From a virus, in IMG/VR virus record IMGVR_UViG_3300030943_000008, positions 5,875 to 69,874 of that record: a stretch of DNA of 64,000 nucleotides; one strand, written 5' to 3'. The notes beneath the pieces were generated by a model. It was not told the origin of the DNA. It saw nothing but the letters and a program-made list of their open reading frames with translations, and made no database searches. Within the stretch, counting starts at the first letter, position 1; each line of letters starts with the position of its first letter. A program made the translations under genes and the position numbers. Below are positions 23,328 to 48,156 of the stretch, piece by piece.

Positions 23328-23557
23328 TGATGATCCGCTCCATCGCGCTCGCCACCGGCATGATAATGGTCATCCTCATGGGCTACCTGGCCCTGATGTT
23401 GGTCATGAAGCCGATCTGCCCGGCCAATTCCAAGGCCGTCGCCCACCGAGCGGGATGGCGGTGCATCGCCCTGCCGATGCCGTCCGCACGCGTGATCCTG
23501 CCATGGATTCCGTCCGATCAAAGCATCATGCCGGCCCGATGGGTCTGGGGTAGGTAA
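23324..23557 (+). CDS. Small membrane protein
   Basis: N-terminal TM segment; coupled to TerL. Confidence 0.5.
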   Translation: MMMIRSIALATGMIMVILMGYLALMLVMKPICPANSKAVAHRAGWRCIALPMPSARVILPWIPSDQSIMPARWVWGR

Positions 23558-31049: not shown

Positions 31050-31343
31050 ATGTCGATTGTTCTTCAAAAAATGCCGGTCGGTTATCCTTACGGGGTTAGT
31101 CAACATGATCCTGATGGGGCGTATGTCTGGGGTGGCGGAGAAAGCACCAACGGGAAATACCAAATTGTTGTGGCTGGACCGCTTCACGGGACGCTAGATC
31201 AATATCGGGATGCGCTGACCGAATGGCTGGAGACGCCAGTTTCCATCGTTCTGAGTGCGCCGCTCGCTCGTCCTGAACCTGATGAAAATCCGCAACGCGA
31301 ATTTTTGAGCATCATTCTCCAACCGGCGGCGAGGACGAACTGA
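31050..31343 (+). CDS. Hypothetical protein
   Basis: RBS GGAG; coupled to the portal gene. Confidence 0.55.
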   Translation: MSIVLQKMPVGYPYGVSQHDPDGAYVWGGGESTNGKYQIVVAGPLHGTLDQYRDALTEWLETPVSIVLSAPLARPEPDENPQREFLSIILQPAARTN

Positions 31344-33814
31344 TGGCATGGGGCGGAAAGCGCGAAGGCGCAGGACGGAAGCCGGCCAGCACCACCGGCA
31401 AGAAGCCAAACCCGCGCAAGGAGCGCGCACCGGCCGTGCCGAAGCTCAATAGCCGCGCCACCGCCGCGCCACCCGAGACTATCCCGGCTGAACCCGCCCG
31501 TCCGTTTGACGCCCGCGCGCTGGCGATGATGCTCCCCGAGATTCAGGCGATCAGCGAGAAATACGCGCGGAACAAGAAAGCGCGGAACCCGGACCAGAAC
31601 CCGTTCCGGCTGCCTAAGTTTCCGAAGTCGGCGATTCCGCCCGGCGGCGGTATGGCGATGGATAACGCGCTGGTGAGCAATACCAACTTCGCCGGCGATC
31701 AATGGCTGAATGGCGGGGACGGATTCGCAGAGGAAGGGCTGGTATTCCTCGGATACCCGTACCTGTCGCAACTCGCGGAGCGCACCGAATACCGCAACGC
31801 ATCGGAGACGATCGCGGACGACGCGACCCGCAAGTGGATCGACTTCGACGTCACAGGCGACGAAACCGAACAGCAGCGCCAGCGCGCCAAGGATCCGACC
31901 GGCTTCGACGAGCGCATGGCCGACCCGGACCAGCGCAAGAAGCGCATCACCGACGCTGGCAAACTCGACAAGATCAAGGCGCTCAAGGACGATCAGGAAC
32001 GTCTCGAGGTTCAGGCCAGGTTTTACGACATGAGCCGCGGCGACGGGTTTTTCGGCCGCATGCACCTTTACTGCGGCATCGGCGAGGGCGTGTGGGACAA
32101 TCCGGCTGAACTGGCGTCGTCGCTTGGCAATAGCCGTGACGCCATGAGCAAAGGAAAGGTCGCGATCGGCTCGTTCAAGGAGCTCAAGGCTATCGAACCG
32201 GTCTGGACCTACCCGCAGATGTACAATTCGAACAATCCGCTGGCGCCGGATTTCTACAACCCGCAGCGGTGGTATGTGCTCGGCCGCGAGATCGATGCAT
32301 CTCGGATGATGACGTTCATCGGACATCCGGTGCCCGACCTCCTGAAACCCGCCTATGCGTTCGGCGGCCTGTCGCTGTCGCAGATGTTGAAACCATACGT
32401 CGACATCTGGCTGACCACCCGGCAATCCGTCGCGGACCTGATTCACAGCTTTTCCGTCATGGTGCTGATGACGGACCTTTCGACAATCCTGCAGCCCGGC
32501 AACGCCGGCGCGCTGATGGCTCGCATCGCGCTGTTCAATATGCTGAGGGACAACCAAGGCGCATTCGTCATCAACAAGGCGACAGAGGATTTCAAGAACG
32601 TGTCGGCGTCGCTGGGTGGTCTGCACGAGCTGCAAGCGCAGGCGCAGGAGCATTTGTGCTCGGCAACCCGCATCCCTTTGGTCAAATACACCGGGATTTC
32701 GCCGTCAGGCTTGAATGCCTCGTCGGAAGGCGAGATCGCCGTCTACGATGACACGATCAGCGCATACCAGAACCGCTTCATGCGGCCGAACTTGGTCAAG
32801 GTGGTCAATTTCCAGCAATTGTCGCTTTGGGGCGAGATCGACCCGGAAATCACCATCACGTTCAACCCTCTCCGCGCCCTGACGCTGGCCGAAAAAGGCC
32901 AAAAACAGAAGGACGACGCCGACCGGGATATCAAATACATCGACGCTGGCGTTCTGGCCCCCGAGGAAGTACGGCGGATCATCATCGACGACCCAGATCT
33001 GCCGTATGCGGGGCTGGATCCGGACGACGTTCCGGAGCCGCCTGCCGAGGAAGGTCTGCTAGGCGCCGGCGCGGGTGGTGCCGCGACTGAGTTCGAAAAG
33101 AACGCAGATGGCGATTCCGATCAGGGGGGCGGGGCTACCGATGCCGGCCTCCCTTTCGGCTCTGATGCGGCTTTCAACGAATCGGATCATCCGCGGGCAG
33201 CGAACGGCGAGTTCGGTTCCGGTGGCAGTGCCGCACAATCCAGCGAATTGCATGAGGCCTCGCCGACTGAGAAGAAAGCCGCACGCGCGTCGCGACTGCT
33301 GGAACGTCTCGGCGTCGGTGCGGAAACCGATGGCGCGGCGACTGCGCTGACCAGCTCGGTTGACGATCTGGAAAGTCACGCAGAAATCCTGTCATCCGAT
33401 GACGATGACGAGGACTTGTCTGCGGAGCGCCGCGACGCTGCTGCAGCCATCGGTAAAGCGGAAGCCGATTTGGTCAGCTATACGCGCCGCCTGGCTGCTG
33501 GCATTGCGCAGATTGCCGGCCTCGGCAAGGTTCGGTTGCCGGACGTGCCCCTCGGTTCCGTGCCTGACGATCTCAATGGCGCCGATCTGGCGGCGCTTCA
33601 CAAGGCGGCCAGCGGGATCGATGCGGCCGCGATTGACGATGATATCCGGGATGCTCGGACATCGCTGCAGGATGCCGTCGAAACCGGCGATGAGGACGAG
33701 GTTTCCGAGGCGCTGGACGGTCTCGCCAGCGTGCTTCAAACGGGAATGCTGAAAAGCTTTGGCGCGCTCAAGGCGATGGCGGAAATAATGGAAAAGGCGC
33801 GCCAGAGGCAATAG
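31343..33814 (+). CDS. Portal protein (DUF1073 type) with C-terminal cargo extension
   Basis: FLGYPYLSQL, YNSNNPL.PDFY.P, KPAYAFGGLS, RIPLVK..GISPSGLNASSEGE; about 210 extra aa after FNESDHPR. Confidence 0.9.
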   Translation: MAWGGKREGAGRKPASTTGKKPNPRKERAPAVPKLNSRATAAPPETIPAEPARPFDARALAMMLPEIQAISEKYARNKKARNPDQNPFRLPKFPKSAIPPGGGMAMDNALVSNTNFAGDQWLNGGDGFAEEGLVFLGYPYLSQLAERTEYRNASETIADDATRKWIDFDVTGDETEQQRQRAKDPTGFDERMADPDQRKKRITDAGKLDKIKALKDDQERLEVQARFYDMSRGDGFFGRMHLYCGIGEGVWDNPAELASSLGNSRDAMSKGKVAIGSFKELKAIEPVWTYPQMYNSNNPLAPDFYNPQRWYVLGREIDASRMMTFIGHPVPDLLKPAYAFGGLSLSQMLKPYVDIWLTTRQSVADLIHSFSVMVLMTDLSTILQPGNAGALMARIALFNMLRDNQGAFVINKATEDFKNVSASLGGLHELQAQAQEHLCSATRIPLVKYTGISPSGLNASSEGEIAVYDDTISAYQNRFMRPNLVKVVNFQQLSLWGEIDPEITITFNPLRALTLAEKGQKQKDDADRDIKYIDAGVLAPEEVRRIIIDDPDLPYAGLDPDDVPEPPAEEGLLGAGAGGAATEFEKNADGDSDQGGGATDAGLPFGSDAAFNESDHPRAANGEFGSGGSAAQSSELHEASPTEKKAARASRLLERLGVGAETDGAATALTSSVDDLESHAEILSSDDDDEDLSAERRDAAAAIGKAEADLVSYTRRLAAGIAQIAGLGKVRLPDVPLGSVPDDLNGADLAALHKAASGIDAAAIDDDIRDARTSLQDAVETGDEDEVSEALDGLASVLQTGMLKSFGALKAMAEIMEKARQRQ

Positions 33815-33830
33815 ACATCCCGGATGATTA

Positions 33831-33844
33831 GGGATAATTTGCCC
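33831..33844. promoter_or_regulatory. Operator-like site after the portal gene
   Basis: GGGATAATTTGCCC downstream of TAGACA (33812-33817). Confidence 0.55.
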
Positions 33845-33880
33845 CGGCGTCGATCCGGCGCGGATTGATCAGGGGAAGTC

Positions 33881-34192
33881 ATGAGCACCGAAGCAACGGA
33901 CATTTTCATTTCAGCACCCGACGAGAAAACCCGAGAGATTGTTCGCGAACAGATTGCCCGGTTTATGGACGAGCGTTTTCCACTGCTGCCGATCAAGATC
34001 GTCGCCGCCCTCCGCGCGCCAGTAGCCGGGGCCGATGCCGGGACCGTTGCGCGTTGCGAACCCTGCGACGGCACAGGAGATTTCCAGGGCGGCAGACGAA
34101 CGATGCAGAAGCCGAAATGTAAGCGGTGTAAGGGCACTGGTGTTGCCGTGCCATCGACGGAGCGAGACACTGTTACGGGTGGCGGGTCATGA
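33881..34192 (+). CDS. Protein with DnaJ-type CxxCxGxG zinc finger
   Basis: CEPCDGTG...CKRCKGTG. Confidence 0.65.
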   Translation: MSTEATDIFISAPDEKTREIVREQIARFMDERFPLLPIKIVAALRAPVAGADAGTVARCEPCDGTGDFQGGRRTMQKPKCKRCKGTGVAVPSTERDTVTGGGS

Positions 34193-34425
34193 CCATCGTC
34201 CGACCGAAAACCACAACGCTGCAGGCATGGCAATTCGGATCTTCGACCCCGCCGGTGTGGGTGATGGATGCTTTGAAAGGGATCGGCGACGATATATTCG
34301 TCGTCCGGCGCAGCGGGAAACAGCTTTTGGTACTGGGAGAATGGCTCCTGAAGCACCCAGACGAGCGCGACCTGATCTGGTGCACAGACGCAGAGTTCAA
34401 GCGGGATTACGAGGTGACGACATGA
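34189..34425 (+). CDS. Small conserved phage protein (RKKPVVIEA/GDW/F..TYE-like family)
   Basis: RPK...QAWQF...GEWLLK...C...F...YE. Confidence 0.6.
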   Translation: MTIVRPKTTTLQAWQFGSSTPPVWVMDALKGIGDDIFVVRRSGKQLLVLGEWLLKHPDERDLIWCTDAEFKRDYEVTT

Positions 34426-34658
34426 TTACCGATCAGATGGTGGAGAGGGCTGCCGAGGCCCTTTGGGCAGCCAACAGCAAGGACCGCTTTGGGAAATGGA
34501 ATGGCTTGGGCGGCGAGTGGAAAGACAAGTGGCGCGATGATGCCCGCGCCGCGCTCACCGGCGCCCTTGGTGACGCTGTCGTGGTGCCGCCGCGGCACGA
34601 AAGCTTGGGCGACCCGGTCTGGGGCACCGACCCGTCGCTTGCTGATCCGGATGCTTGA
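34422..34658 (+). CDS. Hypothetical protein
   Basis: MITDQMVERAAEAL...ARAAL. Confidence 0.6.
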   Translation: MITDQMVERAAEALWAANSKDRFGKWNGLGGEWKDKWRDDARAALTGALGDAVVVPPRHESLGDPVWGTDPSLADPDA

Positions 34659-34927
34659 TCATGGCGGAGAACATCACGCGGCAGATGAAGGCGTTCCTCG
34701 AAGCGCGCCGGGACTTCCTGATGAACAACCGGCCGGCCTGCGTGGGATCGAATCAAAATCCGTGGCAGCCTGGCATTCAAATGATACCGGGTCGATTCGT
34801 TGGACTGACGTGTGAAAGCGCGCCGCCGGTGCGCCTCATCTGCCAGGGGACACCAGCCCAATGGATGTGCTCTAAATGCAAGCGATCGTGGACGCAGGAA
34901 CCGGAGCCGAAAGATGATGCAACGTAG
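34655..34927 (+). CDS. Zn-ribbon hypothetical protein
   Basis: WMCSKC. Confidence 0.45.
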   Translation: MIMAENITRQMKAFLEARRDFLMNNRPACVGSNQNPWQPGIQMIPGRFVGLTCESAPPVRLICQGTPAQWMCSKCKRSWTQEPEPKDDAT

Positions 34928-35783
34928 TCCGTACCTGATTGATGGACCGGCTGTGATCTCGTTCAGCGGCGGCAGGACGTCGGGCTACATGCTGTTCAAG
35001 ATCGTCGAGGCTTACGGCGGCGAACTGCCCAGCGACATCGTGGTTGCATTTGCCAACACCGGGAAAGAGCGCGAGGAAACGTTGCGGTTCGTGCACGAAT
35101 GCGGCGTGCGGTTCGGCGTCCGCATCCGTTGGCTGGAATGGCGCGACATCAGCGTTGGCTACGAGGAAGTCGGTTACAACAGCGCCAGCCGCATGGGCGA
35201 GCCGTTCGACGCGCTGATCCGGAAGAAGAAGCGCCTGCCGAACTGGCAAGAGCGGTGGTGCACGTCGTTCCTGAAACTAAAACCGTTGTTCGGCCTGGCC
35301 GCGACATTTGGGTGGGCTGCGGGGCAATACGCCGAGGTGGTTGGGCTGCGCAACGACGAAGGCCTGCGGATATTCAAGGGCATGGCGAACGCGGAAAAGA
35401 ACGGGCACCGGATGCTCTATCCGCTGGCGCGCGCCAAAGTCGACAAGGCGACTGTCATGGAGTTCTGGTCCCGGATGGACTTCGACCTCGGGCTCGAACC
35501 GCATGAAGGCAATTGCGACCTGTGCTTCATGAAAGGGCGCGGGATCAAGAAGCGGATCATTCGCGCGCGCCCCGATCTCGCCGGCTGGTGGTCCGACAAG
35601 GAAAGCCAGCAGAAGGGAAAGCAGGAACGCGGCTGGTTCGACCGGCGCGACAGCATTGCTGGTTTGGCGGAGGAAGTCCGCCGCGCGCCCGATTTCTTCG
35701 ACGAATCTGATGGCTACGAGCATGATGTAGAATGCGGGCTGCATTGCGAACCGCAACAGGGCGAATCTCATGAGAAAGCGTAA
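34914..35783 (+). CDS. PAPS-reductase/DndC-like PP-loop protein
   Basis: ISFSGGRTS PP-loop, FANTGKE, RWCT..LK, GLRNDE, GNCDLCF.K. Confidence 0.85.
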   Translation: MMQRSPYLIDGPAVISFSGGRTSGYMLFKIVEAYGGELPSDIVVAFANTGKEREETLRFVHECGVRFGVRIRWLEWRDISVGYEEVGYNSASRMGEPFDALIRKKKRLPNWQERWCTSFLKLKPLFGLAATFGWAAGQYAEVVGLRNDEGLRIFKGMANAEKNGHRMLYPLARAKVDKATVMEFWSRMDFDLGLEPHEGNCDLCFMKGRGIKKRIIRARPDLAGWWSDKESQQKGKQERGWFDRRDSIAGLAEEVRRAPDFFDESDGYEHDVECGLHCEPQQGESHEKA

Positions 35784-36816
35784 GGGCGAGAAGGTACTGC
35801 GCGCGGTGTTCCCCAATGCGGGGATTCAGGCGGAATACCGCCGCCGCCTTGACGCGATGATCAATGATATGGCGGCCTCCTATCAATATTGGATCGCCGC
35901 GGCCTATCGCGCCAACGAGACCAGTATTGCGATGGACGCAAAACAGGTTCGCGTGACGGCGGTTGAAACGCAGATTGGTACGAACGCCCGTGGGCGCGTC
36001 TGGTTTTCCTTTGTTGACGGCGAAATGTTACGCGGCAAAAATGGCGTTGGCAGAACATGGAACTCGCGCGTTGCGGCGGAGACAGCCGGTATCAAAGCGG
36101 CTGGCGCGCAGGCCATCGTCACCGAGGCGATAAAGCACGGCAGCCGGTTTGATTTTGAGACGCTGATGTCGCTTCCCGTCCCGGAAACGCCTGTGGGCAG
36201 CCTGCAGGAACGGCTATCCACCCTCGGCGCGCAATGGTCGGCGCGCATCGATGCCGCGGCGCCGAAGCTGGCCGAATGGTTTCGCCAGGCAGTCAGCACC
36301 CGTTCCGGCGCGGCCCTCAAGAAAATCCTCAAGGAAGGCGGGATGTCCGTCGAATTTCAGATGACGCCTGCGATGCGGAACGTCGCGCAGGCGAGCGTCG
36401 CGGAAAATGTGGCGTTGATCCGCTCTATCGGCGAAAAATATCATTCGCAGGTTGAAGGGATGGTGATGCGATCCGTCACCACCGGGCGCGACCTCGGCGG
36501 ATTGGTCAAGGAACTGGAGCATGAACTCGGTCTGACGCGGAAACGCGCGGCCTTCATAGCCTTAGATCAAAACAACAAAATGACGGCTAACTTCACGACG
36601 GTGCGGCAGATCGAAGTCGGCATTACCGATGCTATCTGGTTGCATAGCCACGCCGGGAAAGTCCCGCGCCCGACGCATCTTGCGAATAACGGAAAACGCT
36701 ATTCTGTCGCAGCCGGCTGGTATGATCCCGATCCGAAGGTAAAACGCTTCATCCGCCCTGGTGAGTTGCCCCGGTGCAGGTGTACCTCCCGCTCCGTAGT
36801 GAAAGGCTTCACCTGA
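35770..36816 (+). CDS. MuF / SPP1 gp7-like head morphogenesis protein with internal insertion
   Basis: PNAGI, RAAFIALDQNNK, WLHS...PRPTH, PGELPRCRC. Confidence 0.88.
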   Translation: MRKRKGEKVLRAVFPNAGIQAEYRRRLDAMINDMAASYQYWIAAAYRANETSIAMDAKQVRVTAVETQIGTNARGRVWFSFVDGEMLRGKNGVGRTWNSRVAAETAGIKAAGAQAIVTEAIKHGSRFDFETLMSLPVPETPVGSLQERLSTLGAQWSARIDAAAPKLAEWFRQAVSTRSGAALKKILKEGGMSVEFQMTPAMRNVAQASVAENVALIRSIGEKYHSQVEGMVMRSVTTGRDLGGLVKELEHELGLTRKRAAFIALDQNNKMTANFTTVRQIEVGITDAIWLHSHAGKVPRPTHLANNGKRYSVAAGWYDPDPKVKRFIRPGELPRCRCTSRSVVKGFT

Positions 36817-37367
36817 TGAAACTGATTTTGTGCGACCGCAACGCCAATCTTTGCAGCCACTGGCGTCAGTGGTTCGGCGGAGTGCCAGACGTATCCATAG
36901 TTCAAGGGGATTTCTTCGCGCAGTATGCCGATGCTGCGGTGAGCCCAGCGAATAGTTTCGGGTTCATGGATGGCGGTATCGATCAGGCGTTCTTGGATCA
37001 TTGGGGCTACGATCTGCAGGACAGGATTCAGGATTGGATCAAAGAGAACGGCGAAATCCTCGTTGGCCAAGCCATCACCGTGCCCGTTTTGAAAAAGGAA
37101 TGGTGTGCGGTCGCTCGCGTGATTTCCGCGCCGACCATGCGGACGCCGCGCCGGATCGTGGATGCCGATGCTGTCCGGCTTTCCACGCGCGCCGCGCTGC
37201 GCGAGGCAACGCGGATCGGTGCAACGTCGATCCTGATGACCGGAATGGGTGCCGGCGCTGGCGCAGTTCCGGCCCATATCTGCGCCGAGCAGATGCGCAA
37301 AGGGTGGGGCGACGTGTTCGAGCCGAAGCCGTTCCCGAAGTCGTGGCGTGAAGCGGCGGCGATGTGA
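36816..37367 (+). CDS. Macrodomain (ADP-ribose binding/hydrolase) protein
   Basis: GDFF, DAAVSPANSFGFMDGGID, APTMR.P, GMGAGAG; TGATG-coupled to MuF. Confidence 0.92.
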   Translation: MKLILCDRNANLCSHWRQWFGGVPDVSIVQGDFFAQYADAAVSPANSFGFMDGGIDQAFLDHWGYDLQDRIQDWIKENGEILVGQAITVPVLKKEWCAVARVISAPTMRTPRRIVDADAVRLSTRAALREATRIGATSILMTGMGAGAGAVPAHICAEQMRKGWGDVFEPKPFPKSWREAAAM

Positions 37368-37387
37368 TGATTAATTCGAGGGTAACC

Positions 37388-38272
37388 ATGGGTGATCGAC
37401 CGCTGGCTATAGATTTGTTCACCGGCCTTCATGGTTGGTCTGAGGGGCTTGTCGCCGAGGGGTATCGGGTTGTCGGTTTCGACATTGAGGATATGTGCGG
37501 ACAGTTCGGTCAGAAGCGACCGGACCACGTCAGCCTGGTTATCCAAGACGTTCTTACGCTGCACGGATCGCAATTCAAGGATGCGGCGCTGATCGTCGCG
37601 TCGCCGCCGTGTCAGGCATATTCATGGATGGCGATGCCGTGGAAACTGGCGAAGGCCAAGGCGGCGGCGATTCGCGCGGATACGACCGGCCAATCGCTGG
37701 CTGATCTGAATCGGCTGTTCAACGCCTGCTTTCGAATCCAGAAGGAAGCCAGCATTGCGGCGGGGCGGCACATTCCGATGGTGATCGAGAACGTCCGGGG
37801 AGCTCAGCCATGGGTGGGCCGCGCGCGGTATAATTTCGGGTCGTTTTATCTGTGGGGCGACGTGCCGGCGCTGATGCCGATGACGGTGAAGGCCACAAAG
37901 GTGCCAGGCTTTCGCTTCGATGGCTCTGGAAAGACTTTCCAGAGCGCGAGCGTTGCGGAACATTCCGACGCCACAAAGGTGCCAAGCGCGGACGGCGGAA
38001 GGCGCACTGACAAGGGCAAAGGCGCGCGGTTCACGTCGCGGGACTGCGGGATCGAAGGCCGTAAAATGCCCGGCATCGAATTGAGTGAGGTGGGATTCAA
38101 CGTCGCGGCCGCGCGGCAATACGCGCATTTGGTTGAGGGGGCTGAATATGTGAGGACAGCCGACGACAAGCGCCAGCACATCGGCATCAACCGCAAAATG
38201 GCCTCTGCCATGATCGCCAAGATCCCGCTTCCCTTGAGCCGTCACATCGCGGCAACCTACCGAGAGACCTGA
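37388..38272 (+). CDS. C5-cytosine DNA methyltransferase-like protein
   Basis: IDLFTGLHG (motif I), ASPPCQ (IV), IENV (VI). Confidence 0.82.
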   Translation: MGDRPLAIDLFTGLHGWSEGLVAEGYRVVGFDIEDMCGQFGQKRPDHVSLVIQDVLTLHGSQFKDAALIVASPPCQAYSWMAMPWKLAKAKAAAIRADTTGQSLADLNRLFNACFRIQKEASIAAGRHIPMVIENVRGAQPWVGRARYNFGSFYLWGDVPALMPMTVKATKVPGFRFDGSGKTFQSASVAEHSDATKVPSADGGRRTDKGKGARFTSRDCGIEGRKMPGIELSEVGFNVAAARQYAHLVEGAEYVRTADDKRQHIGINRKMASAMIAKIPLPLSRHIAATYRET

Positions 38273-38291
38273 TCACAACGGGAGAATCCTG

Positions 38292-38711
38292 ATGTCTCGT
38301 ATCGTGCGCAATTTCGAGGAAGTCGTGTCTGAGTGTTCACGGTCCGAGATTTTCAGGGAAAGGCGGTTCATCCTTTCGGCGATCGCCTGCACGGTGGTGC
38401 TGATTTTGGCGGCGACCGCCGTGTTTGCCCGTGACCGCGGCCAGTTCGCGCAGAGCAGCCCCGAAATCAAGCAATGGTTCGACAGCCTGCGCGACAAGAA
38501 GGGAACGCCGTGCTGCGACACCAGCGACGGCTTCCGCGTCGAGGATCCGGACTGGCGCAACGTCGGGGATGCCTACGAGGTCAAGATTGATGGCGAATGG
38601 CGCCGGATGACCGACGACCAACTGGTCACCACGCCGAACCGCATCGGCTATGCCATGGTCTGGATATTCCACGGGCGGATTATCTGCTTCATGCCGGGAG
38701 CACGGGGATGA
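38292..38711 (+). CDS. Secreted Cys-containing protein (rhizobial-type family)
   Basis: Signal/TM segment; WFDSL...CCDTSDG...ICFMPG. Confidence 0.7.
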   Translation: MSRIVRNFEEVVSECSRSEIFRERRFILSAIACTVVLILAATAVFARDRGQFAQSSPEIKQWFDSLRDKKGTPCCDTSDGFRVEDPDWRNVGDAYEVKIDGEWRRMTDDQLVTTPNRIGYAMVWIFHGRIICFMPGARG

Positions 38712-38793
38712 AAGGCAACCATGCCCGGCAAGTCGCGCTCGCCGCCAACGTGATGGTGTGGCTGCTGATCCTGCGCGTTGCGGGCTTGATCTG

Positions 38794-39117
38794 ATGGCAT
38801 TGCGGCCGATTCCATCTAGAGATTTGATCGGGCAGCTTGCGGCCGCCATGCGAATCCTTGGATTCCGCCCCACCCATACGAGCCCGAGTGGATCGCGATA
38901 TCTCGGCTATCCCGGCACGCCGTTCCAGATCAGGATATCCGACCATAGATAGAGCGGTTTCAATAAAACCCGCCAAGCGCAAGCGGTCCGGTCGGTGGTC
39001 GTCCGGCCCGTTCCTGCCGCCGAGGTGAGCGCGCTGGCACTTGATCTGGCGGTGCGCTTCTTGGTGCAGGTCGACGAGAGGCGTGGATATTTCCGTGCGC
39101 CGCGCCCTCGCCCGTGA
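38794..39117 (+). pseudogene. ORF interrupted by an in-frame TAG (38950-38952)
   Basis: SGSRY...IRISDHR* then continues in frame for 54 codons. Confidence 0.55.
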
Positions 39118-39129
39118 TATGCGAAATCC

Positions 39130-39384
39130 ATGAGCACCACAGCCGAATCGCAACCGTGCATACTGGACATTCCGATCAACGCGCTGGCGCCGGATTTCTT
39201 TTGGACTCGGATGGCGGCGGCAGGCGTATCAATTGAGGAAGGCGAGGCGTATCGAGCCGGCCTGCTTTCCCGTGACGATGAAGCCCGGATAGAATGGCGG
39301 GTGCAGATGTCCCGTAACCGCCTGCGGGATGCTGAGGTCCCCGGCGTTCAGTTTTGGATGTCGCACCGAAGGATGGTTTCGTAA
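39130..39384 (+). CDS. Hypothetical protein
   Basis: 84-aa ORF coupled to the next gene. Confidence 0.5.
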   Translation: MSTTAESQPCILDIPINALAPDFFWTRMAAAGVSIEEGEAYRAGLLSRDDEARIEWRVQMSRNRLRDAEVPGVQFWMSHRRMVS

Positions 39385-39599
39385 TGCCGATTGACCAGCC
39401 CCCAGCAATCATTCAGCCGGCTCAACCCGGGAAAAAGTTCTCCGTTAATGCCGGTGTCGGCGGGTGGTGGGCTCACATCGAAGGCCATGCATATCCGTTT
39501 GGCGCATGGCGTATGGACCGTGGCCCTTATCCGTTCCGATGGATGGCCGCCATTCAGTTTCCGATCGAGCGATTGACCAAAGACGGACCACGCCGATGA
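39384..39599 (+). CDS. Hypothetical protein
   Basis: TAATG and ATGA coupling. Confidence 0.5.
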   Translation: MPIDQPPAIIQPAQPGKKFSVNAGVGGWWAHIEGHAYPFGAWRMDRGPYPFRWMAAIQFPIERLTKDGPRR

Positions 39600-41350
39600 C
39601 CGACTTTAAGGAAAGCGACCACCCGCGCGCTCCAGACGGCAAGTTTGGATCTGGTGGCGGCGGAAGTTCATCCACGTCAAAACCATCGGTGTCTTTTTCG
39701 GCCCCTCTGGATACTGAGGAACGGCAGGCCCTGTCCGATTATGCCGGGCAAGCTTACGTAGACGTTAATGAATCGCTGCGGACTGGCGCGAAGATGACGC
39801 CGGAAAATCGCCTGTTAGTGGAGACTATGGACGACGCATTTGAAAAGGCGTCAACCGACCACGAGATGACTGTCTACCGATCAGTGGTATCGGGATTTTG
39901 GCAACCGCTCGTAGGCAATGTGAAGCCTGGCGATGTCGTGACCGACAAATCGTACACATCAACAACCACAAATCCAGAAGGAGTGAAGCGGTTCGGGTCT
40001 CATACGGTTGAGATCAAAGTTCCAAAGGGCGCGAAAGCAATCCCGATGGATGGTATTTCCAAATACGAGCACGAGTCGGAAGTCGTGTTAGGACGGGGGA
40101 CACAATTTGAAGTCGTAAGCACGACCCCACAAAAAACAGTCCTTCGGGTTATCCCGGCCGGCACAATTGGAAAAGACGAGACGATGACCGCTGTTCTTGC
40201 CGCGAACTCTGCGATTCCGGCCAGCTTGCGCAAGAAGGCCTACGACTCGTCCGCGCTGGCGGGGATTACCAAGCATGCAGCCGGCGTCCTGCACGTCGCG
40301 CCCGATGGCGATATTCTGCTGCTGCGCCGTGCCGGCGAGCCGGGCAAGGACAATTTCGTCGGACATTGGGCGTTGCCAGGCGGCGGCGTTGACGATGGTG
40401 AGACCCCCGAGCAGGGCGCCGTCCGCGAGAACCGCGAGGAAATGGGCGTCGACGTCGATCCCGCGAAGCTCAAGCCGCTGGACCGCACCAAGACGCCGAA
40501 CGGCATGGCCTTCCACACGTTCGCGCATCCGGCCGCGACCAAATTTTCCCCGACGCTGAACGACGAGCACAGCGGCGCCGGCTGGTTCGGTTTGCATGAG
40601 CTGCCGCGGCCGCTGCATCCCGCCGTCGAAAAGACGCTCCGCGATCAGGTCGGCGTCAAGGACGACATGTCACCAGAGGATGCGAAGACGGCCGGAGAGG
40701 GTCTGGCGTCGTGGGCGGCAGAACCGGGCGAAGATTTTCCGGCAACTGATTCGGCGCTGCTGCTGGCGCTTGATCGAGACTCCGTCCGAGAGACGGATAG
40801 CAGCGGGCGCCTGCACATCGAAACAGCGAATATCTGCAAGGCATGCGTTTCGCCCTATCGAGGGTCGGAAATCCCCGGATGGAAAGACCTCGGGCTCGAT
40901 CCTGATGAAGTCTATCAACTGCTTCGTGATCCGGATGAGCTGCGAAAGTCTGTGGCGAGCGCGAACGGCATTCAGTTGCTGCGCAAGCACATTCCGGTCA
41001 GCGCAGAAGATCACCAGCCATGGGATGTTGTTGGCGCGGTGGGTACGAATGCAAAGTGGGTTGATCCATACATTCAAAACGGCCTGACGGTGTGGCCTGC
41101 CGCCGATATCGCCAGCGTTCTGTCCGGCAAGAAGAAAATGCTGAGTCCGGGGTATCACTACAAGCCGGACCTGACGCCAGGCGTTTTTGAGGGCGTGAAA
41201 TACCAAATTGTGATGCGGAATATTATCTTCAATCACCTCGCCATCGTCGAGGATGGGAGACAGGGAAGCGACATCGTGATCGGTGACTCAGATCCGTTCG
41301 CGGCGGGATGGGAGATCGTCGAGGCTGCGATTTTGGCTTTGCGCCCGTAA
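39596..41350 (+). CDS. Fusion: ESDHPR tag + ADP-ribosyltransferase + Nudix hydrolase + DUF2213 prohead protease
   Basis: Y.DVNESLR, VYRS, YTSTT, ESEVVL (R-S-ExE ART); GGGVDDGETPEQGAVRENREEMG (Nudix box); NICKA.VSPY.G.EIP, LSPGY, NHLAIVEDGRQG (DUF2213). Confidence 0.9.
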   Translation: MTDFKESDHPRAPDGKFGSGGGGSSSTSKPSVSFSAPLDTEERQALSDYAGQAYVDVNESLRTGAKMTPENRLLVETMDDAFEKASTDHEMTVYRSVVSGFWQPLVGNVKPGDVVTDKSYTSTTTNPEGVKRFGSHTVEIKVPKGAKAIPMDGISKYEHESEVVLGRGTQFEVVSTTPQKTVLRVIPAGTIGKDETMTAVLAANSAIPASLRKKAYDSSALAGITKHAAGVLHVAPDGDILLLRRAGEPGKDNFVGHWALPGGGVDDGETPEQGAVRENREEMGVDVDPAKLKPLDRTKTPNGMAFHTFAHPAATKFSPTLNDEHSGAGWFGLHELPRPLHPAVEKTLRDQVGVKDDMSPEDAKTAGEGLASWAAEPGEDFPATDSALLLALDRDSVRETDSSGRLHIETANICKACVSPYRGSEIPGWKDLGLDPDEVYQLLRDPDELRKSVASANGIQLLRKHIPVSAEDHQPWDVVGAVGTNAKWVDPYIQNGLTVWPAADIASVLSGKKKMLSPGYHYKPDLTPGVFEGVKYQIVMRNIIFNHLAIVEDGRQGSDIVIGDSDPFAAGWEIVEAAILALRP

Positions 41351-42105
41351 ACCCATCCATTGGGCAATTCTTCATGAGGCTTCAGTCTCTTTGTTGAAGT
41401 GCCGTCGTTTATCCATCGGGTGCCCATCGCTACAGTTTTTATTATGTCGCTGTTGATATTGAAGCGGCCTCTTTTCCAGCCTGCTGGAATTTTGTCGTCA
41501 GAGTTAATTCGACGATCGTTTTTTCCATCATTTATCCAAAAAACGGCTGTCACGGTCAGGGATGCTTTCAAGGCAGCGGTGGAACGTTCTTCGGGGGTGG
41601 TTTGGCTCATTCTGGTGACGGCCCCCTTTTGACCTGCGATTTTTCTTCTCGCTGCGCCGAGGTTCTGTTGGCGCGACAACGCGCGTTCGCGTCGAGCTTC
41701 TGGCGAATGCCTTCGGTGGGCGTCACTGATCGCCTTACTGACTTGGAGTCGTTTTTCCGGTGAGTATGAAGCGGCCAACTCCCTCGCTGATTCCGAAGTC
41801 ATTCCATCCCCGCCAGGAGAAATGTTCGTCAGAGGTCCGTGCCCCGTTTTTCTTCGCCCAATAGCTGCGATGAATGCGCTTTCAATTTCTAGCGCTTCGA
41901 TCTCCGTGACGCCCTCTCTTATGAAAACGAATGGCACATAGCCCATCTCTTCCACGGTTCTCTTCAAAAAGGCGTTCTTCATGTGGTTGTGCCGTGAGGG
42001 GACCAAGGTACTTTGGATTCTAGTTCCGCATCCTTTGCCGACATATCGAGGAATGGCGTTTTCGTCGAAGAGGATGTAGACATAGAAGATCGCTGGATCG
42101 GACAT
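41233..42105 (-). CDS. GIY-YIG homing endonuclease
   Basis: FYVYILF...YVGKG..R, E..FI, LTNISPGGDG; two WINDG repeats; antisense and lower GC. Confidence 0.85.
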   Translation of the reverse strand: MSDPAIFYVYILFDENAIPRYVGKGCGTRIQSTLVPSRHNHMKNAFLKRTVEEMGYVPFVFIREGVTEIEALEIESAFIAAIGRRKTGHGPLTNISPGGDGMTSESARELAASYSPEKRLQVSKAISDAHRRHSPEARRERALSRQQNLGAARRKIAGQKGAVTRMSQTTPEERSTAALKASLTVTAVFWINDGKNDRRINSDDKIPAGWKRGRFNINSDIIKTVAMGTRWINDGTSTKRLKPHEELPNGWVYGRKAKIAASTISHPAANGSESPITMSLPCLPSSTMAR

Positions 42106-42307
42106 GGCAAAACTCAACGTTAAGGAAATTCGGGATAATCTCCGGCTTAGTCAGCCGGAATTTGCGGCGCGCTTTGGTTTTAATCTCGGAACGCTCCGAC
42201 AGTGGGAGCAAGGCCGGCGCCAACCTGATAGCGCTGCCAGGGTGCTGCTTTCCGTCATCTCCCACGCTCCGAATGTCGTCGATGAGGCACTATCTATAGG
42301 CACGTGA
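42104..42307 (+). CDS. XRE-family HTH protein (HigA-like, no toxin seen)
   Basis: IRDNLRLSQPEFAARFG..LGTLRQWEQGRRQP. Confidence 0.85.
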   Translation: MAKLNVKEIRDNLRLSQPEFAARFGFNLGTLRQWEQGRRQPDSAARVLLSVISHAPNVVDEALSIGT

Positions 42308-42399: not shown

Positions 42400-43428
42400 A
42401 TGACTGCGCTCCGGGATGCATTGCGCAAGAAATATCGAAGCCCGAAGGATGCACTTCAGGCGCTTGGCCTCGACGAGGCACTTTTGACCCCTCAGGAGAA
42501 CATCATGGCGAAGCCGACCCGAATTGGCGCATTGGTCCTGTCCAGTACCGCCGCCGCCGTTGCCCCGCTGCTGGCGATGGATTCCAAGGTCACGCTTCCG
42601 AAGGACCTATTCGCGGGTCTGACATCCAAGAACATCAAGGCCAACAAGGCGGCGCTGCTCGCCGGCGTCCGGCTGGCGCTGGACGGCAAGCTTCGTAAGG
42701 GCCTGGCGCTCGATGCCTCCATGGCCGGCCTCGCCAAGGCCATCGACGCTTTCGAGGACATGGACGACGCGGTCGACGAAGCCGGCGAGAATGATCTGGA
42801 GAAGGTCGCCTCGGTCGATCCGGTCGCCGCCGAAATCCTGAAGGAAAAGAAGGACGACGACGGCGTGTTCGACTCTGCCGACCTGATGGCCTTCCTGAAG
42901 GGCAAGGGCATGTCGGACGAAGATATTGCCGCCGCCTGCGCGATGCTCCCGGCTGCTGGCGCCGTCGACGAAGCCGAGACCCCCGAAGAAAAGGCCACCC
43001 GCGAGAAGAAAGAAGCGGAAGCCGCCGCAGCGAAGGACGCCGAGATGAAGGACATGGTCACGAAGCCGGCGATGGATGCTGCGCTGGCCGCCATCCGCAC
43101 CGCCACCATCAAGGAAGTGCGCGACACCGAGCGCGGCATCCGCCAGGCGCTCGCCGATGTCGCGCCATACGTTGGGGAAATCCCGGCGTCGATGGCCTTC
43201 GACAGCGCCGCCGACGTCCGCCGCCACGCGCTGACCATGCTTGGCGTCGAGGGCGCCAAGACGATCCACGCTGACGCCCTGGCCCCGGTGCTGGCCGCGC
43301 AGCGCAAGATCGGCCACCGCACCTCCGAGCAGTCTGTCCGCGAAATGCCGATGGGCATGGATAGCGCCAGCATCGACAGCGCCACCAAGTACGCGCCCGG
43401 CCTGGCTCACATCGAAATCGGCGGCTGA
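42400..43428 (+). CDS. Capsid scaffolding protein (likely start ATG 42505)
   Basis: Acidic/helical, multiple AMD/ALD/AFD motifs; RBS AGGAG before 42505; lies between protease and capsid genes. Confidence 0.75.
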   Translation: MTALRDALRKKYRSPKDALQALGLDEALLTPQENIMAKPTRIGALVLSSTAAAVAPLLAMDSKVTLPKDLFAGLTSKNIKANKAALLAGVRLALDGKLRKGLALDASMAGLAKAIDAFEDMDDAVDEAGENDLEKVASVDPVAAEILKEKKDDDGVFDSADLMAFLKGKGMSDEDIAAACAMLPAAGAVDEAETPEEKATREKKEAEAAAAKDAEMKDMVTKPAMDAALAAIRTATIKEVRDTERGIRQALADVAPYVGEIPASMAFDSAADVRRHALTMLGVEGAKTIHADALAPVLAAQRKIGHRTSEQSVREMPMGMDSASIDSATKYAPGLAHIEIGG

Positions 43429-44482: not shown

Positions 44483-45589
44483 ATGAACCGGCAAGAAGCG
44501 CGAGCAGAATGGCAGAAGGTCAAAGGCGCCTATGAGGCGGCTGGCGTCATCCTGCCGGGTGTCACGATGTTCACCCCGGACGAATTTCGGAACAGCACCC
44601 TTTCCATCAACGATCTGGCGATGGACGCGGCCGGCACGCTGGTGACGGACCCGAACTCGGCAATCCCCGCCATTCTGACCACGTCGATCGATCCCGAAGT
44701 GATCCGCATCGCGTTCGCGCCGACCCAGATGGGCGAAATCCTCGGCGGCGAGCAGAAGGTCGGCGACTGGCTCGACGAAACCCGGCTGTTCCCGGTCATC
44801 GAAGATACCGGCGAAGTTTCGAGCTACGACGACTATTCGAACAACGGCATGGCTGGCATCAACTTCAACTACCCGGCCCTGCAGTCCTACCTGTTCCAGA
44901 CCATCCTGCATTACGGCGAACGCGAGACCGCGCGCGCCGGCCTGATGCGAATCAACTATGTCGGCGATCTCAACCGCGCCGCCGCCAATATGCTGAACCG
45001 GTTCGCCAACCTGACCTATGCGTTCGGCGTCCAGGGGCTGCAGAATTACGGCCTCATCAACAACCCGTACCTGTCGAGCTTCATCACGCCGATCGTCAAG
45101 GCGTGGGGCGGCACCAGCTGGTTCGATCAGGGCTCGCCAGCCGCGACCGCCAACGAGGTCTACAACGACATCGTCGCCCTGGTGAACAAGGCCATCGCGC
45201 AGACCAACGGCACGGTCGACCTCAAGGCCAGCATGACGCTGGCGATGTCGCCGGGATCGGAAGTCGCGCTGACCTTCACGAACAGTTTCGGCGTCAACGT
45301 GACCGACCTGCTCAAGAAGAACTTCCCGAACATGAAGATCAAGACCGCCGTCCAATACGGCGCCACCACGACCTTCAACACGCAGGGCTATTCGCCGGTC
45401 GGCAACGTCGTGCAGTTGATCATCGACGAGATCGACGGCCAGAAGGTCGCGAAGCCGGCGTTTAACGAAAAGATGCGCGCGCACAAGATCATCCCGGAAC
45501 TGTCGAGCTGGAAGCAGAAGCTCACCGGCGGAACGTGGGGGGTTATAATGCGCCTGCCCCTCGGCAGCGTGGGCATGATCGGCGTCTGA
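44483..45589 (+). CDS. Major capsid protein (DUF2184 type)
   Basis: LAMDA, NSAIPA.LT, GDW, GEVSSYDD, YGERE, NYGLIN, EKMRAH, GTWG. Confidence 0.92.
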   Translation: MNRQEARAEWQKVKGAYEAAGVILPGVTMFTPDEFRNSTLSINDLAMDAAGTLVTDPNSAIPAILTTSIDPEVIRIAFAPTQMGEILGGEQKVGDWLDETRLFPVIEDTGEVSSYDDYSNNGMAGINFNYPALQSYLFQTILHYGERETARAGLMRINYVGDLNRAAANMLNRFANLTYAFGVQGLQNYGLINNPYLSSFITPIVKAWGGTSWFDQGSPAATANEVYNDIVALVNKAIAQTNGTVDLKASMTLAMSPGSEVALTFTNSFGVNVTDLLKKNFPNMKIKTAVQYGATTTFNTQGYSPVGNVVQLIIDEIDGQKVAKPAFNEKMRAHKIIPELSSWKQKLTGGTWGVIMRLPLGSVGMIGV

Positions 45590-47520: not shown

Positions 47521-48156
47521 ATGAAAACATCCCCTGAAATCATGCGAAGCGCTGGCGTCTACGAGATTTGCATCAAGCGCGGAGCCAAGCCACCCCAATT
47601 TTATATTGGACAGGCAACCATCCTGCGGAAGCGGCGGACGGTTCATCTTCGGGCGCTCGCCGCTGGGAAACACGGAAATTCTAGACTTCAACGGGCCTAC
47701 AATAAATATGGCCCAGAATCGTTGAGCTTTCGCCCGTTGCTGGTCTGTGAGCGCAAGAAAGAAACGCTCGACATGTACGAGAAGGCCATTCTCGATAGCT
47801 ACCAGAGAGACGCAATCTTCAATATGTGCCTCGAATGCGTCGGGTCCAAGCTTGGTGTCAAAATGTCGGATGCCACGAAAAGGAAGATCGGTGCCGCCAA
47901 TAAGGGAGCGTTCCGATCGCAAAGTCACAGGGATGCCGTCCGCCTGTCGAACCAGACTCGTATCGTTAGTGCTGAAACCAGAAAGAAGATGGCAATAGCG
48001 CGAACTGGAAACAAAAACTGTTTGGGGCGAAAGCTGACTGACGAGCATAAAGCCAACGTAGGGGCGGGACTCAAGGGGATGAAAAAGACCAAGGAAGAAC
48101 TTGAACGACGGGGCGCCACTAGGAGAAAGAATGCCGAATCTCGAGGGTATTATTGA
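47521..48156 (+). CDS. GIY-YIG homing endonuclease with NUMOD3-like repeats
   Basis: GVYEI...FYIGQA..R...H...H.N..LQRAYNKYG; SDATKRKIG and SAETRKKMA repeats. Confidence 0.88.
   Translation: MKTSPEIMRSAGVYEICIKRGAKPPQFYIGQATILRKRRTVHLRALAAGKHGNSRLQRAYNKYGPESLSFRPLLVCERKKETLDMYEKAILDSYQRDAIFNMCLECVGSKLGVKMSDATKRKIGAANKGAFRSQSHRDAVRLSNQTRIVSAETRKKMAIARTGNKNCLGRKLTDEHKANVGAGLKGMKKTKEELERRGATRRKNAESRGYY

Follow-up and report, generated by a model that had tools for sequence, protein, structure and literature searches.

A widespread short motif ahead of putative cargo domains on phage portal and prohead protease proteins

Why do two head genes of one virus, one for the portal and one for a prohead protease, carry nearly the same 18-residue tag, each time next to a domain that is not part of the protein core? 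The question arose from a first-pass annotation of 64,000 nucleotides (the window) of a 69,874-bp IMG/VR viral contig. It proposed that the tag, which heads cargo domains on head proteins, is a modular signal for head retention or ejection that protease cleavage would expose, and that it may also serve as a recombination handle.

Phage effectors that are fused to head proteins, or packed with them, have already been predicted by comparative genomics. Domains such as ART, NUDIX, 2H, InPase and PBECR have been described as fusions to the portal, to MuF or to a capsid-processing serine peptidase (Iyer et al. 2017, PMC5512222; Iyer et al. 2022, PMC9503650). These fusions lie in head-gene context, are predicted to be packaged and injected, and have the peptidase, of assemblin-like fold, at the C-terminus. 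The architecture of the fusion in the window is alike. No junction motif is named in the portions of the main text of the two papers considered here, whereas the header described below marks swap points between modules. Nor was the motif found described in the other literature text searched; the alignments in the supplements of the two papers may show it. In the MuF polymorphic toxins of temperate phages a conserved carrier bears a variable C-terminal toxin, commonly an ART (Jamet et al. 2017, PMC5576092; for Bxa, PMC11699363). There the carrier is MuF, with no demarcation motif reported in the parts of those accounts drawn on here; in the window the portal and the protease take that part, and MuF has neither cargo nor motif. 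What marks the cargo? How does it leave its carrier, and how is new cargo gained? A header of this kind could address all three.

The two motif copies and their gene neighbourhood

The genes and domains concerned are as follows.

23557-26340: terminase, in the head module of the contig
31343..33814, plus strand: portal gene, 823 aa, with a Pfam Phage_portal_3 core at aa 139-529 (nt 31757-32929; E 1e-67)
33173..33226, plus strand: motif copy 1, FNESDHPRAANGEFGSGG, portal aa 611-628, between an acidic/Gly-rich linker and the portal C-terminal extension
33227..33811, plus strand: portal C-terminal extension past the motif, aa 629-823 (195 aa), acidic, no family match
35770..36816, plus strand: MuF-like head morphogenesis gene
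39596..41350, plus strand: fusion gene, 584 aa, with motif, ADPrib_exo_Tox, NUDIX and DUF2213 in that order
39605..39658, plus strand: motif copy 2, FKESDHPRAPDGKFGSGG, fusion aa 4-21, at the N-terminus of the ART-NUDIX-protease fusion
39707-40144, plus strand: ADPrib_exo_Tox domain of the fusion, aa 38-183 (Pfam)
40277-40642, plus strand: NUDIX domain of the fusion, aa 228-349 (Pfam)
40787-41290, plus strand: DUF2213 prohead protease domain of the fusion, aa 398-565 (Pfam; head maturation protease in PHROGs)
42400..43428, plus strand: scaffold-like C-terminal half of the protease-scaffold family as a separate ORF (phrog_2229 positions 188-426), no motif
44483..45589, plus strand: major head protein (phrog_264), no motif

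When recomputed, the two 18-residue cores were identical at 14 of 18 positions, as had been claimed. With its flanks, the portal copy (33161-33241) translates as SDAAFNESDHPRAANGEFGSGGSAAQS and the fusion copy (39590-39700) as TPMTDFKESDHPRAPDGKFGSGGGGSS. The start codon of the fusion gene (ATG at 39596) and the TGA stop of the ORF before it (39354-39599) overlap as ATGA, so the fusion motif begins at residue 4. A six-frame search with HPR...G.[FWY] found these two sites only, both in the 64-kb window and in the whole contig. A degenerate DNA pattern matched twice in the window against 0.00 expected (100 shuffles), and a profile of the motif recovered the two copies from the contig at E 9.8e-16 and 9.5e-15. 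The two tags are alike as copies of a widespread motif and not by chance.

The portal, MuF, protease fusion, scaffold part, major head protein and terminase together make up the head morphogenesis module in which the motif genes lie. The fusion combines effector domains (ADPrib_exo_Tox and NUDIX) and a virion head domain (DUF2213) in one polypeptide, and its DUF2213 domain has invariant His465, Ser517 and His547. The portal also carries an extra domain without family assignment, the 195-aa extension. A word-indexed search with this extension at near lengths returned only itself, and its Atlas structural model matched only helical folds (TM 0.50 or less), with no recognisable enzymatic fold in that comparison. 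Polymorphic toxins have a cognate immunity gene beside the variable domain. A Macro-domain gene, whose product could reverse ADP-ribosylation, is present here at 36774-37367; it lies 2.2 kb upstream of the ART fusion and is not adjacent to it.

Consensus and spread of the motif

The motif is [FW]xExxHPRxx[ND]Gx[FW]G followed by a Gly-rich linker. The fuller consensus, about 20-25 aa, is D-A-[ED]-[WF]-x-E-[SGA]-x-H-P-R-x-x-[ND]-G-[KQR]-[FW]-G, then a Gly/Ser-rich linker. Its net charge is acidic. A 30-column profile matched 3131 cluster representatives at E<=1e-3, 317 of them at E<=1e-10; a single protein may hold as many as 18 copies. Scores from a scan of bacterial genomes were bimodal, and 57 of the 103 scored matches were true copies. 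The hosts of phages and prophages with the motif include Proteobacteria, Actinomycetota, Firmicutes, Bacteroidota, Planctomycetota, candidate-phyla bacteria and others.

Conservation extends to positions that the search pattern had not forced. Among 112 ORF matches from a pattern scan of IMG/VR there is S at +3 in 60, A at +8 in 73, N/D at +10 in 99 and G at +16 to +18 in 76-86. The x-x-D that had been noticed before both window copies is general only in part: of 112 viral-contig copies, 50 have D at position -3 and 61 have E/D at position -1. In 594 copies collected without forcing the positions, the aromatic residue is W/F/Y in 587 and the Glu is E in 571; S/G/A/T follows [FW]-x-E in 446. 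AF2 run on the motif alignment predicted a small ordered knuckle (pLDDT 85 at residues 11-20) with a helical turn and an R..F bridge, and disorder on both sides.

Curated resources do not cover the region: neither Pfam nor NCBIfam has a model over portal aa 600-640 or fusion aa 1-37, and the motif profile gave only a chance 11-residue match in the PDB (E 1.2). By tblastn against cultured phages, a search too insensitive for short motif regions, a 37-aa query had no matches and a 73-aa query had 8 records at E<=10. In each of four cultured phages or prophages the portal bears the only copy. The portal of phage Mu is processed at its C-terminus; the motif is absent from the Mu portal, F and I proteins. 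A lead from an actinophage protein with 6 copies (P0123) was set aside, as only a cargo domain is common to it and to the 'structural protein' gp205 of Rhodococcus phage E3 and Bixzunavirus genes, and these lack the motif. Overall, this is a widespread short linear motif for which we found no prior description.

Three further ideas about its activity were discarded: self-cleavage at Asn/Asp-Gly because N and D alternate and the positions of candidate nucleophiles vary, DNA binding because the motif is net acidic, and motif-motif recruitment because many genomes have one copy.

Position of the motif and exchange of modules

The domains on the two sides of the tag differ. In viral contigs, 46 of 72 upstream segments belong to portal families, 2 to MuF and 1 to DUF2213. 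Effector families dominate downstream, where none of the 113 segments is from a portal family; Zeta_toxin (11), ADPrib_exo_Tox (9), LPD3 (8), Topoisom_I (Topo IB, 5), PBECR1 (5) and DUF2213 (5) are found there. This catalogue and the allele breakpoints described below bear out the proposal that the tag is modular and stands ahead of non-core (cargo) domains on head proteins.

Among the matches listed, 63 of 120 database proteins contain a portal family. In a set of 226 proteins at least 142 aa follow the last copy in 95%, and just 3 proteins have fewer than 60 aa there. Copies are a median 262 aa apart, and the first copy lies within 37 aa of the N-terminus in a quarter. Pfam domains are separated by linkers that hold the motif, and stand-alone proteins of the head module carry it close to the N-terminus. 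N-terminal placement of the kind seen in phage T4 (below) is found in the protease fusion, while the portal copy and most database copies are internal. The 116 ORFs adjoining the motif at 30 loci include MuF (15), DUF2213 (11) and Major_capside (9). The unit is a header, a linker and a domain, with the carrier always upstream or absent.

Is the cargo of this unit exchanged? Alleles were compared in 14 pairs with at least 0.82 upstream identity, all from related loci and not from the window itself. Downstream identity is 0.27 or less in 6 of the 14 pairs, which represent 3 independent events (L025/L016 vs L098, L013 vs L019 and L050 vs L010/L073/L080; upstream 0.91-0.97, downstream 0.21-0.27). 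Between near-identical portals, identity drops 12-15 residues into the motif. A 197-aa module of L050, present as an indel, is bracketed by two motif copies that have a 26-nt identical run. Both the replacement of cargo and the insertion of a module have their breakpoints precisely at the header's 3' edge. Since portal families are upstream only, effectors lie downstream and the breaks fall at the motif, we read it as the header of swappable cargo modules in polyvalent proteins delivered by the head, and as the junction at which they are joined on.

The suggestion of a recombination handle fits L050 and does not fit the window. The two window copies have 38 of 54 nt in common, and no identical stretch exceeds 6 nt; of their 14 common residues, 9 use different codons. 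There is therefore no usable DNA homology between them, and selection acts on the peptide.

Polymorphic toxins have demarcation motifs, VENN in CdiA and the DPxGL region in Rhs. Like these, the header in the related loci is placed where close, near-identical alleles switch to unrelated C-terminal domains. It differs in that its sequence is unrelated, delivery would be by phage capsid and not by a secretion system, and it is also N-terminal and multi-copy. The general framework for such toxins is that of Zhang et al. (2012, PMC3482391).

What the motif may do

With about as much confidence as doubt, we propose that exchangeable cargo modules in head-carried proteins have the motif as their N-terminal header. 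These proteins would be effector fusions to the portal, MuF or prohead protease, proteins of the head module that stand alone, and giant polyvalent proteins in which each domain has its own header. The peptide itself would be recognised in the procapsid or virion and, in the most likely sequence, the module would be cut free around the invariant [FW]-x-E and small residue, which we take to resemble the cleavage sites of assemblin-like-fold prohead proteases (T4, phiKZ). Such a cut would leave x-HPR...G-F-G-linker as a uniform N-terminus on every cargo, and this common end may help to load the cargo, to position it or to let it leave together with the DNA. The cargo so marked in the present phage would be the 195-aa extension of the portal and the ART-NUDIX(-protease) unit. 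More generally, the header would define module boundaries in thousands of unannotated proteins and predict that orphan domains, such as the portal tail, are delivered cargo.

The capsid targeting sequence of phage T4 heads the internal proteins and Alt, and is removed by the gp21 prohead protease after Glu. Like it, the header is a short peptide on proteins predicted to be packed in the head, including an ADP-ribosyltransferase, with a hydrophobic residue, any residue and then Glu where the cut is presumed. The two would not be expected to be alike in sequence. The T4 tag is lineage-specific and occurs at N-termini only, whereas the header is internal as often as N-terminal and occurs in many phage lineages.

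Several observations sit poorly with this proposal. The motif is absent between cargo and protease in the window fusion and in other motif-cargo-DUF2213 proteins, so a cut at the header would leave the cargo attached to the protease. Nor does the motif occur in the scaffold or the major head protein, which are expected protease substrates. Two loci (L010 and L103), in the order portal, unknown ORF and major head protein, have no recognisable protease. Four cultured phages or prophages have a single copy, and the portal extension of the window has no recognisable enzymatic fold; these points also tell against the proposal. A complex prediction of the window DUF2213 domain with a 40-aa motif peptide, made without control runs, scored 0.01 against a mark of 0.32 and speaks neither for nor against cleavage. 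The motif is near-invariant while the surrounding portal, capsid and protease families vary, which is hard to fit to a single phage-encoded receptor.

This invariance invites a broader claim, which we think fairly unlikely: that the motif is a near-universal portable cargo header of tailed phages, enough by itself to have a domain carried in the capsid and released into the infected cell. The motif would then be the capsid counterpart of a secretion signal, and its near-invariance across phages of most bacterial phyla would reflect recognition by something conserved in the route of packaging and ejection, or in the host, and not by a lineage-specific protein. A header that is sufficient alone would offer a practical way to tag proteins for loading into phage heads.

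Could the motif be a processing site and nothing else, at which a prohead protease (DUF2213 or another assemblin-like fold) separates polyvalent domains? Peptidase processing of polyvalent proteins was proposed by Iyer et al. (2017, PMC5512222). The motif lies in inter-domain linkers at roughly one copy per domain, a small residue usually follows [FW]-x-E, and DUF2213, with its invariant His-Ser-His, is the commonest recognisable protease nearby. However, N-terminal copies have just 2-5 residues ahead (MANWDE, MTDFKE), so cleavage there frees nothing, and an invariant site of 18 aa is far longer than typical protease sites. These points, together with the observations against cleavage given above, make a role confined to processing improbable.

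We likewise consider it doubtful that the motif is simply a cargo-loading (capsid-targeting) peptide that docks cargo to the inner surface of the procapsid, the scaffold or the portal with no need of cleavage, in the manner of the T4 capsid targeting sequence and of encapsulin peptides. The order of header, Gly-rich linker and cargo, the N-terminal copies on stand-alone head-module proteins and the predicted knuckle flanked by disorder would all suit such docking. Cargo-loading peptides of encapsulins are usually C-terminal and bind the shell protein. Like the header, they are short conserved peptides with a flexible Gly-rich linker; they are destined for the interior of an HK97-fold shell, as the header would be. 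Yet most copies belong to portals, MuF or proteases, proteins that get into the procapsid unaided, and invariance across different portal and capsid families is unlike a co-evolving docking site.

A signal that acts after injection is a less probable alternative still. It would be read by a universal host component, for example as an N-degron that a cut just ahead of the invariant F/W would expose, or as a refolding or hand-off signal, and would set the fate of the effectors in the newly infected cell. Each effector domain has its own copy, and near-invariance across phages of many bacterial phyla fits a partner found in all bacteria better than any phage protein; the N-degron version, however, presupposes where the cut would fall.

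That the motif is mainly a DNA-level recombination handle with no peptide function is very improbable: the allele breakpoints and the identical run in L050 speak for it, but the window copies have diverged at the DNA level and the residue pattern is kept across phyla of very different base composition, which indicates purifying selection on the peptide.

Two motif copies in the head genes of the phage

The contig is 69,874 bp long with a G+C content of 60%, and the window covers most of it. Two of its genes carry an 18-residue copy of the motif [FW]xExxHPRxx[ND]Gx[FW]G with its Gly-rich linker:

31343-33814, portal ORF; Phage_portal_3 at aa 139-529 (E 1e-67), with phrog_146 concordant
33173-33226, portal motif copy (aa 611-628, by translation), FNESDHPRAANGEFGSGG
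39596-41350, protease fusion; ADPrib_exo_Tox at aa 38-183, NUDIX at aa 228-349 and DUF2213 at aa 398-565

An acidic, Gly-rich linker of about 80 residues separates the portal core from the motif copy, after which the protein runs on for another 195 residues. The translated N-terminus of the fusion is MTDFKESDHPRAPDGKFGSGG. Its DUF2213 part is a head maturation protease by PHROGs. The start codon of the fusion and the stop codon of the preceding ORF overlap in the sequence ATGA. The resemblance between the two tags, reported in the first-pass annotation, is borne out, with 14 residues common to both 18-mers. A six-frame search of the whole contig for HPR...G.[FWY] found no site beyond these two, and the degenerate DNA pattern occurs twice in the window, where 100 shuffles give an expectation of 0.00. 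No homologue of the acidic 195-residue portal extension was found by sequence search or Atlas structure comparison; matches to its Atlas model are limited to helical proteins, with TM of 0.50 or less. Judged from sequence, the header marks the portal extension and the ADP-ribosyltransferase (ART)-NUDIX unit as predicted head-carried cargo.

Fusions of ART, NUDIX and other effectors to portal, MuF and capsid-processing peptidase proteins are described in passages of Iyer et al. (2017, PMC5512222; 2022, PMC9503650), and MuF toxins in passages of Jamet et al. (2017, PMC5576092). The domain architectures are already known; the conserved header is new, as are its occurrence once per module and its use as the swap point. 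The motif was not found named in the article texts searched, and family and profile searches found no Pfam model, NCBIfam model or PDB chain that covers it.

The motif family and the unit that it heads

The portal core ends in the same motif in Pseudomonas phage Orisa03, Burkholderia phage vB_E159, Xanthomonas phage PhiXhv-5 and a Helicobacter prophage, each of which has one copy per genome. A scan of IMG/VR with the degenerate pattern gave at least 112 stretches, with 112 ORF matches (105 without duplicates). Across all 112 ORF matches listed, conservation extends to positions that the pattern left free, and the extended consensus of the matches listed is D-A-[ED]-[WF]-x-E-S-[KD]-H-P-R-A-x-[ND]-G-[KQ]-F-G-S-G-G-G. 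A 30-column profile of the motif, A3, was searched against 1.84 billion cluster representatives. It matched 3131 proteins at E<=1e-3, of which 317 also passed E<=1e-10; single-copy proteins are under-represented in these counts because one copy scores only about 40-54 bits. There are up to 18 copies per protein, as in a 7334-aa example. Although the profile did not force these residues, the first position is W, F or Y in 587 of 594 copies and Glu stands two residues past it in 571 of 594. Directly after the Glu, 446 of the same 594 have S, G, A or T.

The same pattern was scanned over 596 Gb of bacterial genomes. Among the matches listed, 103 were scorable, and the score on non-forced positions split them cleanly into 57 true copies and 46 chance matches. 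The hosts of true copies, again among the matches listed, include Proteobacteria, Actinomycetota, Firmicutes (including Negativicutes), Bacteroidota, Planctomycetota, Verrucomicrobia, Elusimicrobia, Gemmatimonadota, Saccharibacteria and others. The two window tags are members of a motif family, not a coincidence.

The first-pass annotation had placed the tag ahead of cargo, and a catalogue of the domains on either side agrees: cargo families lie downstream and portal families upstream only. The 105 viral ORFs from the IMG/VR matches listed were cut at the motif, giving 72 upstream segments of at least 60 aa and 113 downstream segments. Among these matches, the upstream segments hit Phage_portal_3 (38), Phage_portal_2 (6), Portal_Mu (1), Phage_portal (1), MuF (2) and DUF2213 (1). 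No portal family was found in the 113 downstream segments of the matches listed, which instead hit Zeta_toxin (11), ADPrib_exo_Tox (9), LPD3 (8), DUF2213, Topoisom_I and PBECR1 (5 each) and a few others; about half had no family match. In the best 120 database proteins a portal family is present in 63 and ADPrib_exo_Tox in 33.

Measured over 226 proteins, the stretch after the last copy is at least 142 residues long in 95% and shorter than 60 in only 3. From one copy to the next the median distance is 262 residues (5th percentile 127), and the first copy is within 37 residues of the N-terminus in a quarter. By Pfam coordinates, the motif sits in inter-domain linkers about 10-30 residues past one domain, and the next recognised domain, where present, starts about 35-120 residues beyond it. 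This position and spacing define the unit as a header, a Gly-rich linker and one domain. The genes adjoining motif ORFs are head genes: at the 30 loci whose downstream sequence reaches 4.5 kb or more, the 116 neighbouring ORFs of at least 200 aa (of 196 of at least 150 aa) include MuF (15), DUF2213 (11), Major_capside (9) and Peptidase_S78_2 (2). AF2 on the motif alignment predicted, with modest confidence (mean pLDDT 71.6; residues 11-20 at 85), a knuckle that has a helical turn at E-x-x and the Arg bridged to the second aromatic residue.

Some motif proteins have further features. A subset of small ones (loci L011, L042, L046, L068, L086 and L091; database proteins P0170 and P0181) begins with an alternating, His-rich leader (type x-H-I-H-I-Y-L-H-x-H-D) 3-6 residues ahead of the motif. 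This leader could act as a strand-like anchor or provide a metal site. In locus L049 (1226-1861, +) and protein P0096 (aa 830-863) the motif directly follows a DUF2213 domain, which places it at the head of the region that resembles a scaffold in ordinary family members. In P0123, which has six motif copies, a cargo domain (aa 90-279) shares 42-48% identity with part of Rhodococcus phage E3 gp205 (L238), annotated as a virion 'structural protein', and with Bixzunavirus genes located near the capsid genes, for example Mycobacterium phage Astraea gp103 (L239). No motif was found in E3 gp205 or these Bixzunavirus genes.

Exchange at the motif and its possible action

Fourteen pairs of ORFs from different contigs were compared, each at least 82% identical over the 150 residues upstream of the motif. 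In 6 of the 14, representing three independent events, downstream identity is only 0.21-0.27. For the locus pairs L025 and L098, and L013 and L019, protein and DNA identity continues through the motif and collapses 12-15 residues past its first aromatic. Locus L050 (10467-11111, -) differs from the near-identical lambda-type portals L010, L073 and L080 by an extra 197-aa module, inserted or deleted, which is bracketed by two motif copies with a run of 26 identical nt common to both. A demarcation motif of polymorphic toxins behaves in the same way. The tag had also been suggested to be a recombination handle between head genes. L050 agrees with this, but the window copies do not: they are identical at 38 of 54 nt with a longest run of 6 nt, and their codons differ at 9 of the 14 common residues. 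These comparisons indicate that selection conserves the peptide and that recombination between the two window copies would not be possible.

The motif is very probably a cargo header placed at module junctions. How it acts is a more tentative matter. We propose that each cargo module would be released at its header, which would then stay on it as an N-terminal mark, a mechanism that we rate as possible but somewhat short of an even chance. Processing at the motif is favoured by its location between domains and by its invariant aromatic-x-Glu with a small residue next, which resembles the prohead protease sites of T4 and phiKZ. The DUF2213 domain of the window also has an invariant His-Ser-His (H465, S517 and H547 of the fusion), the catalytic arrangement of assemblin. 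Against a pure cleavage site, as few as 2-5 residues precede N-terminal copies, there are motif-cargo-protease fusions with no motif between cargo and protease, the motif is absent from the scaffold and major head protein, and two lineages with lambda-type portals have no recognisable protease between the portal and capsid genes. A simple docking peptide fits poorly with most copies being on proteins that need no help to enter the head, and with a motif that is invariant while the portal, capsid and protease families around it change.

Other features of the genome

The following ORFs were also noted:

23557-26340 (+), large terminase ORF, 927 aa, unusually long
41233-42117 (-), 294-aa ORF between 39596-41350 and 42400-43428
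47521-48156 (+), second homing-endonuclease-like ORF (phrog_314, E 2e-18), within the structural gene block

The protease-scaffold is a single gene in relatives (phrog_2229, 428 aa; one 431-aa gene in Orisa03). In the window it is split, with phrog_2229 positions 8-185 ending the ART-NUDIX-protease ORF and positions 188-426 forming the separate ORF 42400-43428. The N-terminus of the 294-aa ORF is presumably GIY-YIG-like; the ORF has no Pfam match, and its PHROGs matches are only of unknown function.

Three non-structural genes (34812-35783, 36774-37367 and 37364-38272, all +) are interleaved with those for the portal, MuF and protease. In this order they are PAPS-reductase-like (phrog_424), Macro-domain and C5 cytosine methyltransferase-like genes. 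By analogy, the Macro protein could reverse the ADP-ribosylation that the packaged ART would cause while still in the producing cell; a hydrolase adjoining Bxa is presented as a counterpart for undoing ADP-ribosylation in a passage of PMC11699363.

In the terminase ORF about 190 residues precede the terminase match, and the P-loop region also matches primase and helicase-loader PHROGs. Contig positions 1-100 are repeated at 69712-69811, starting 163 nt from the end, but identity does not hold over all 163 nt. The contig is recorded as linear and 79% complete.
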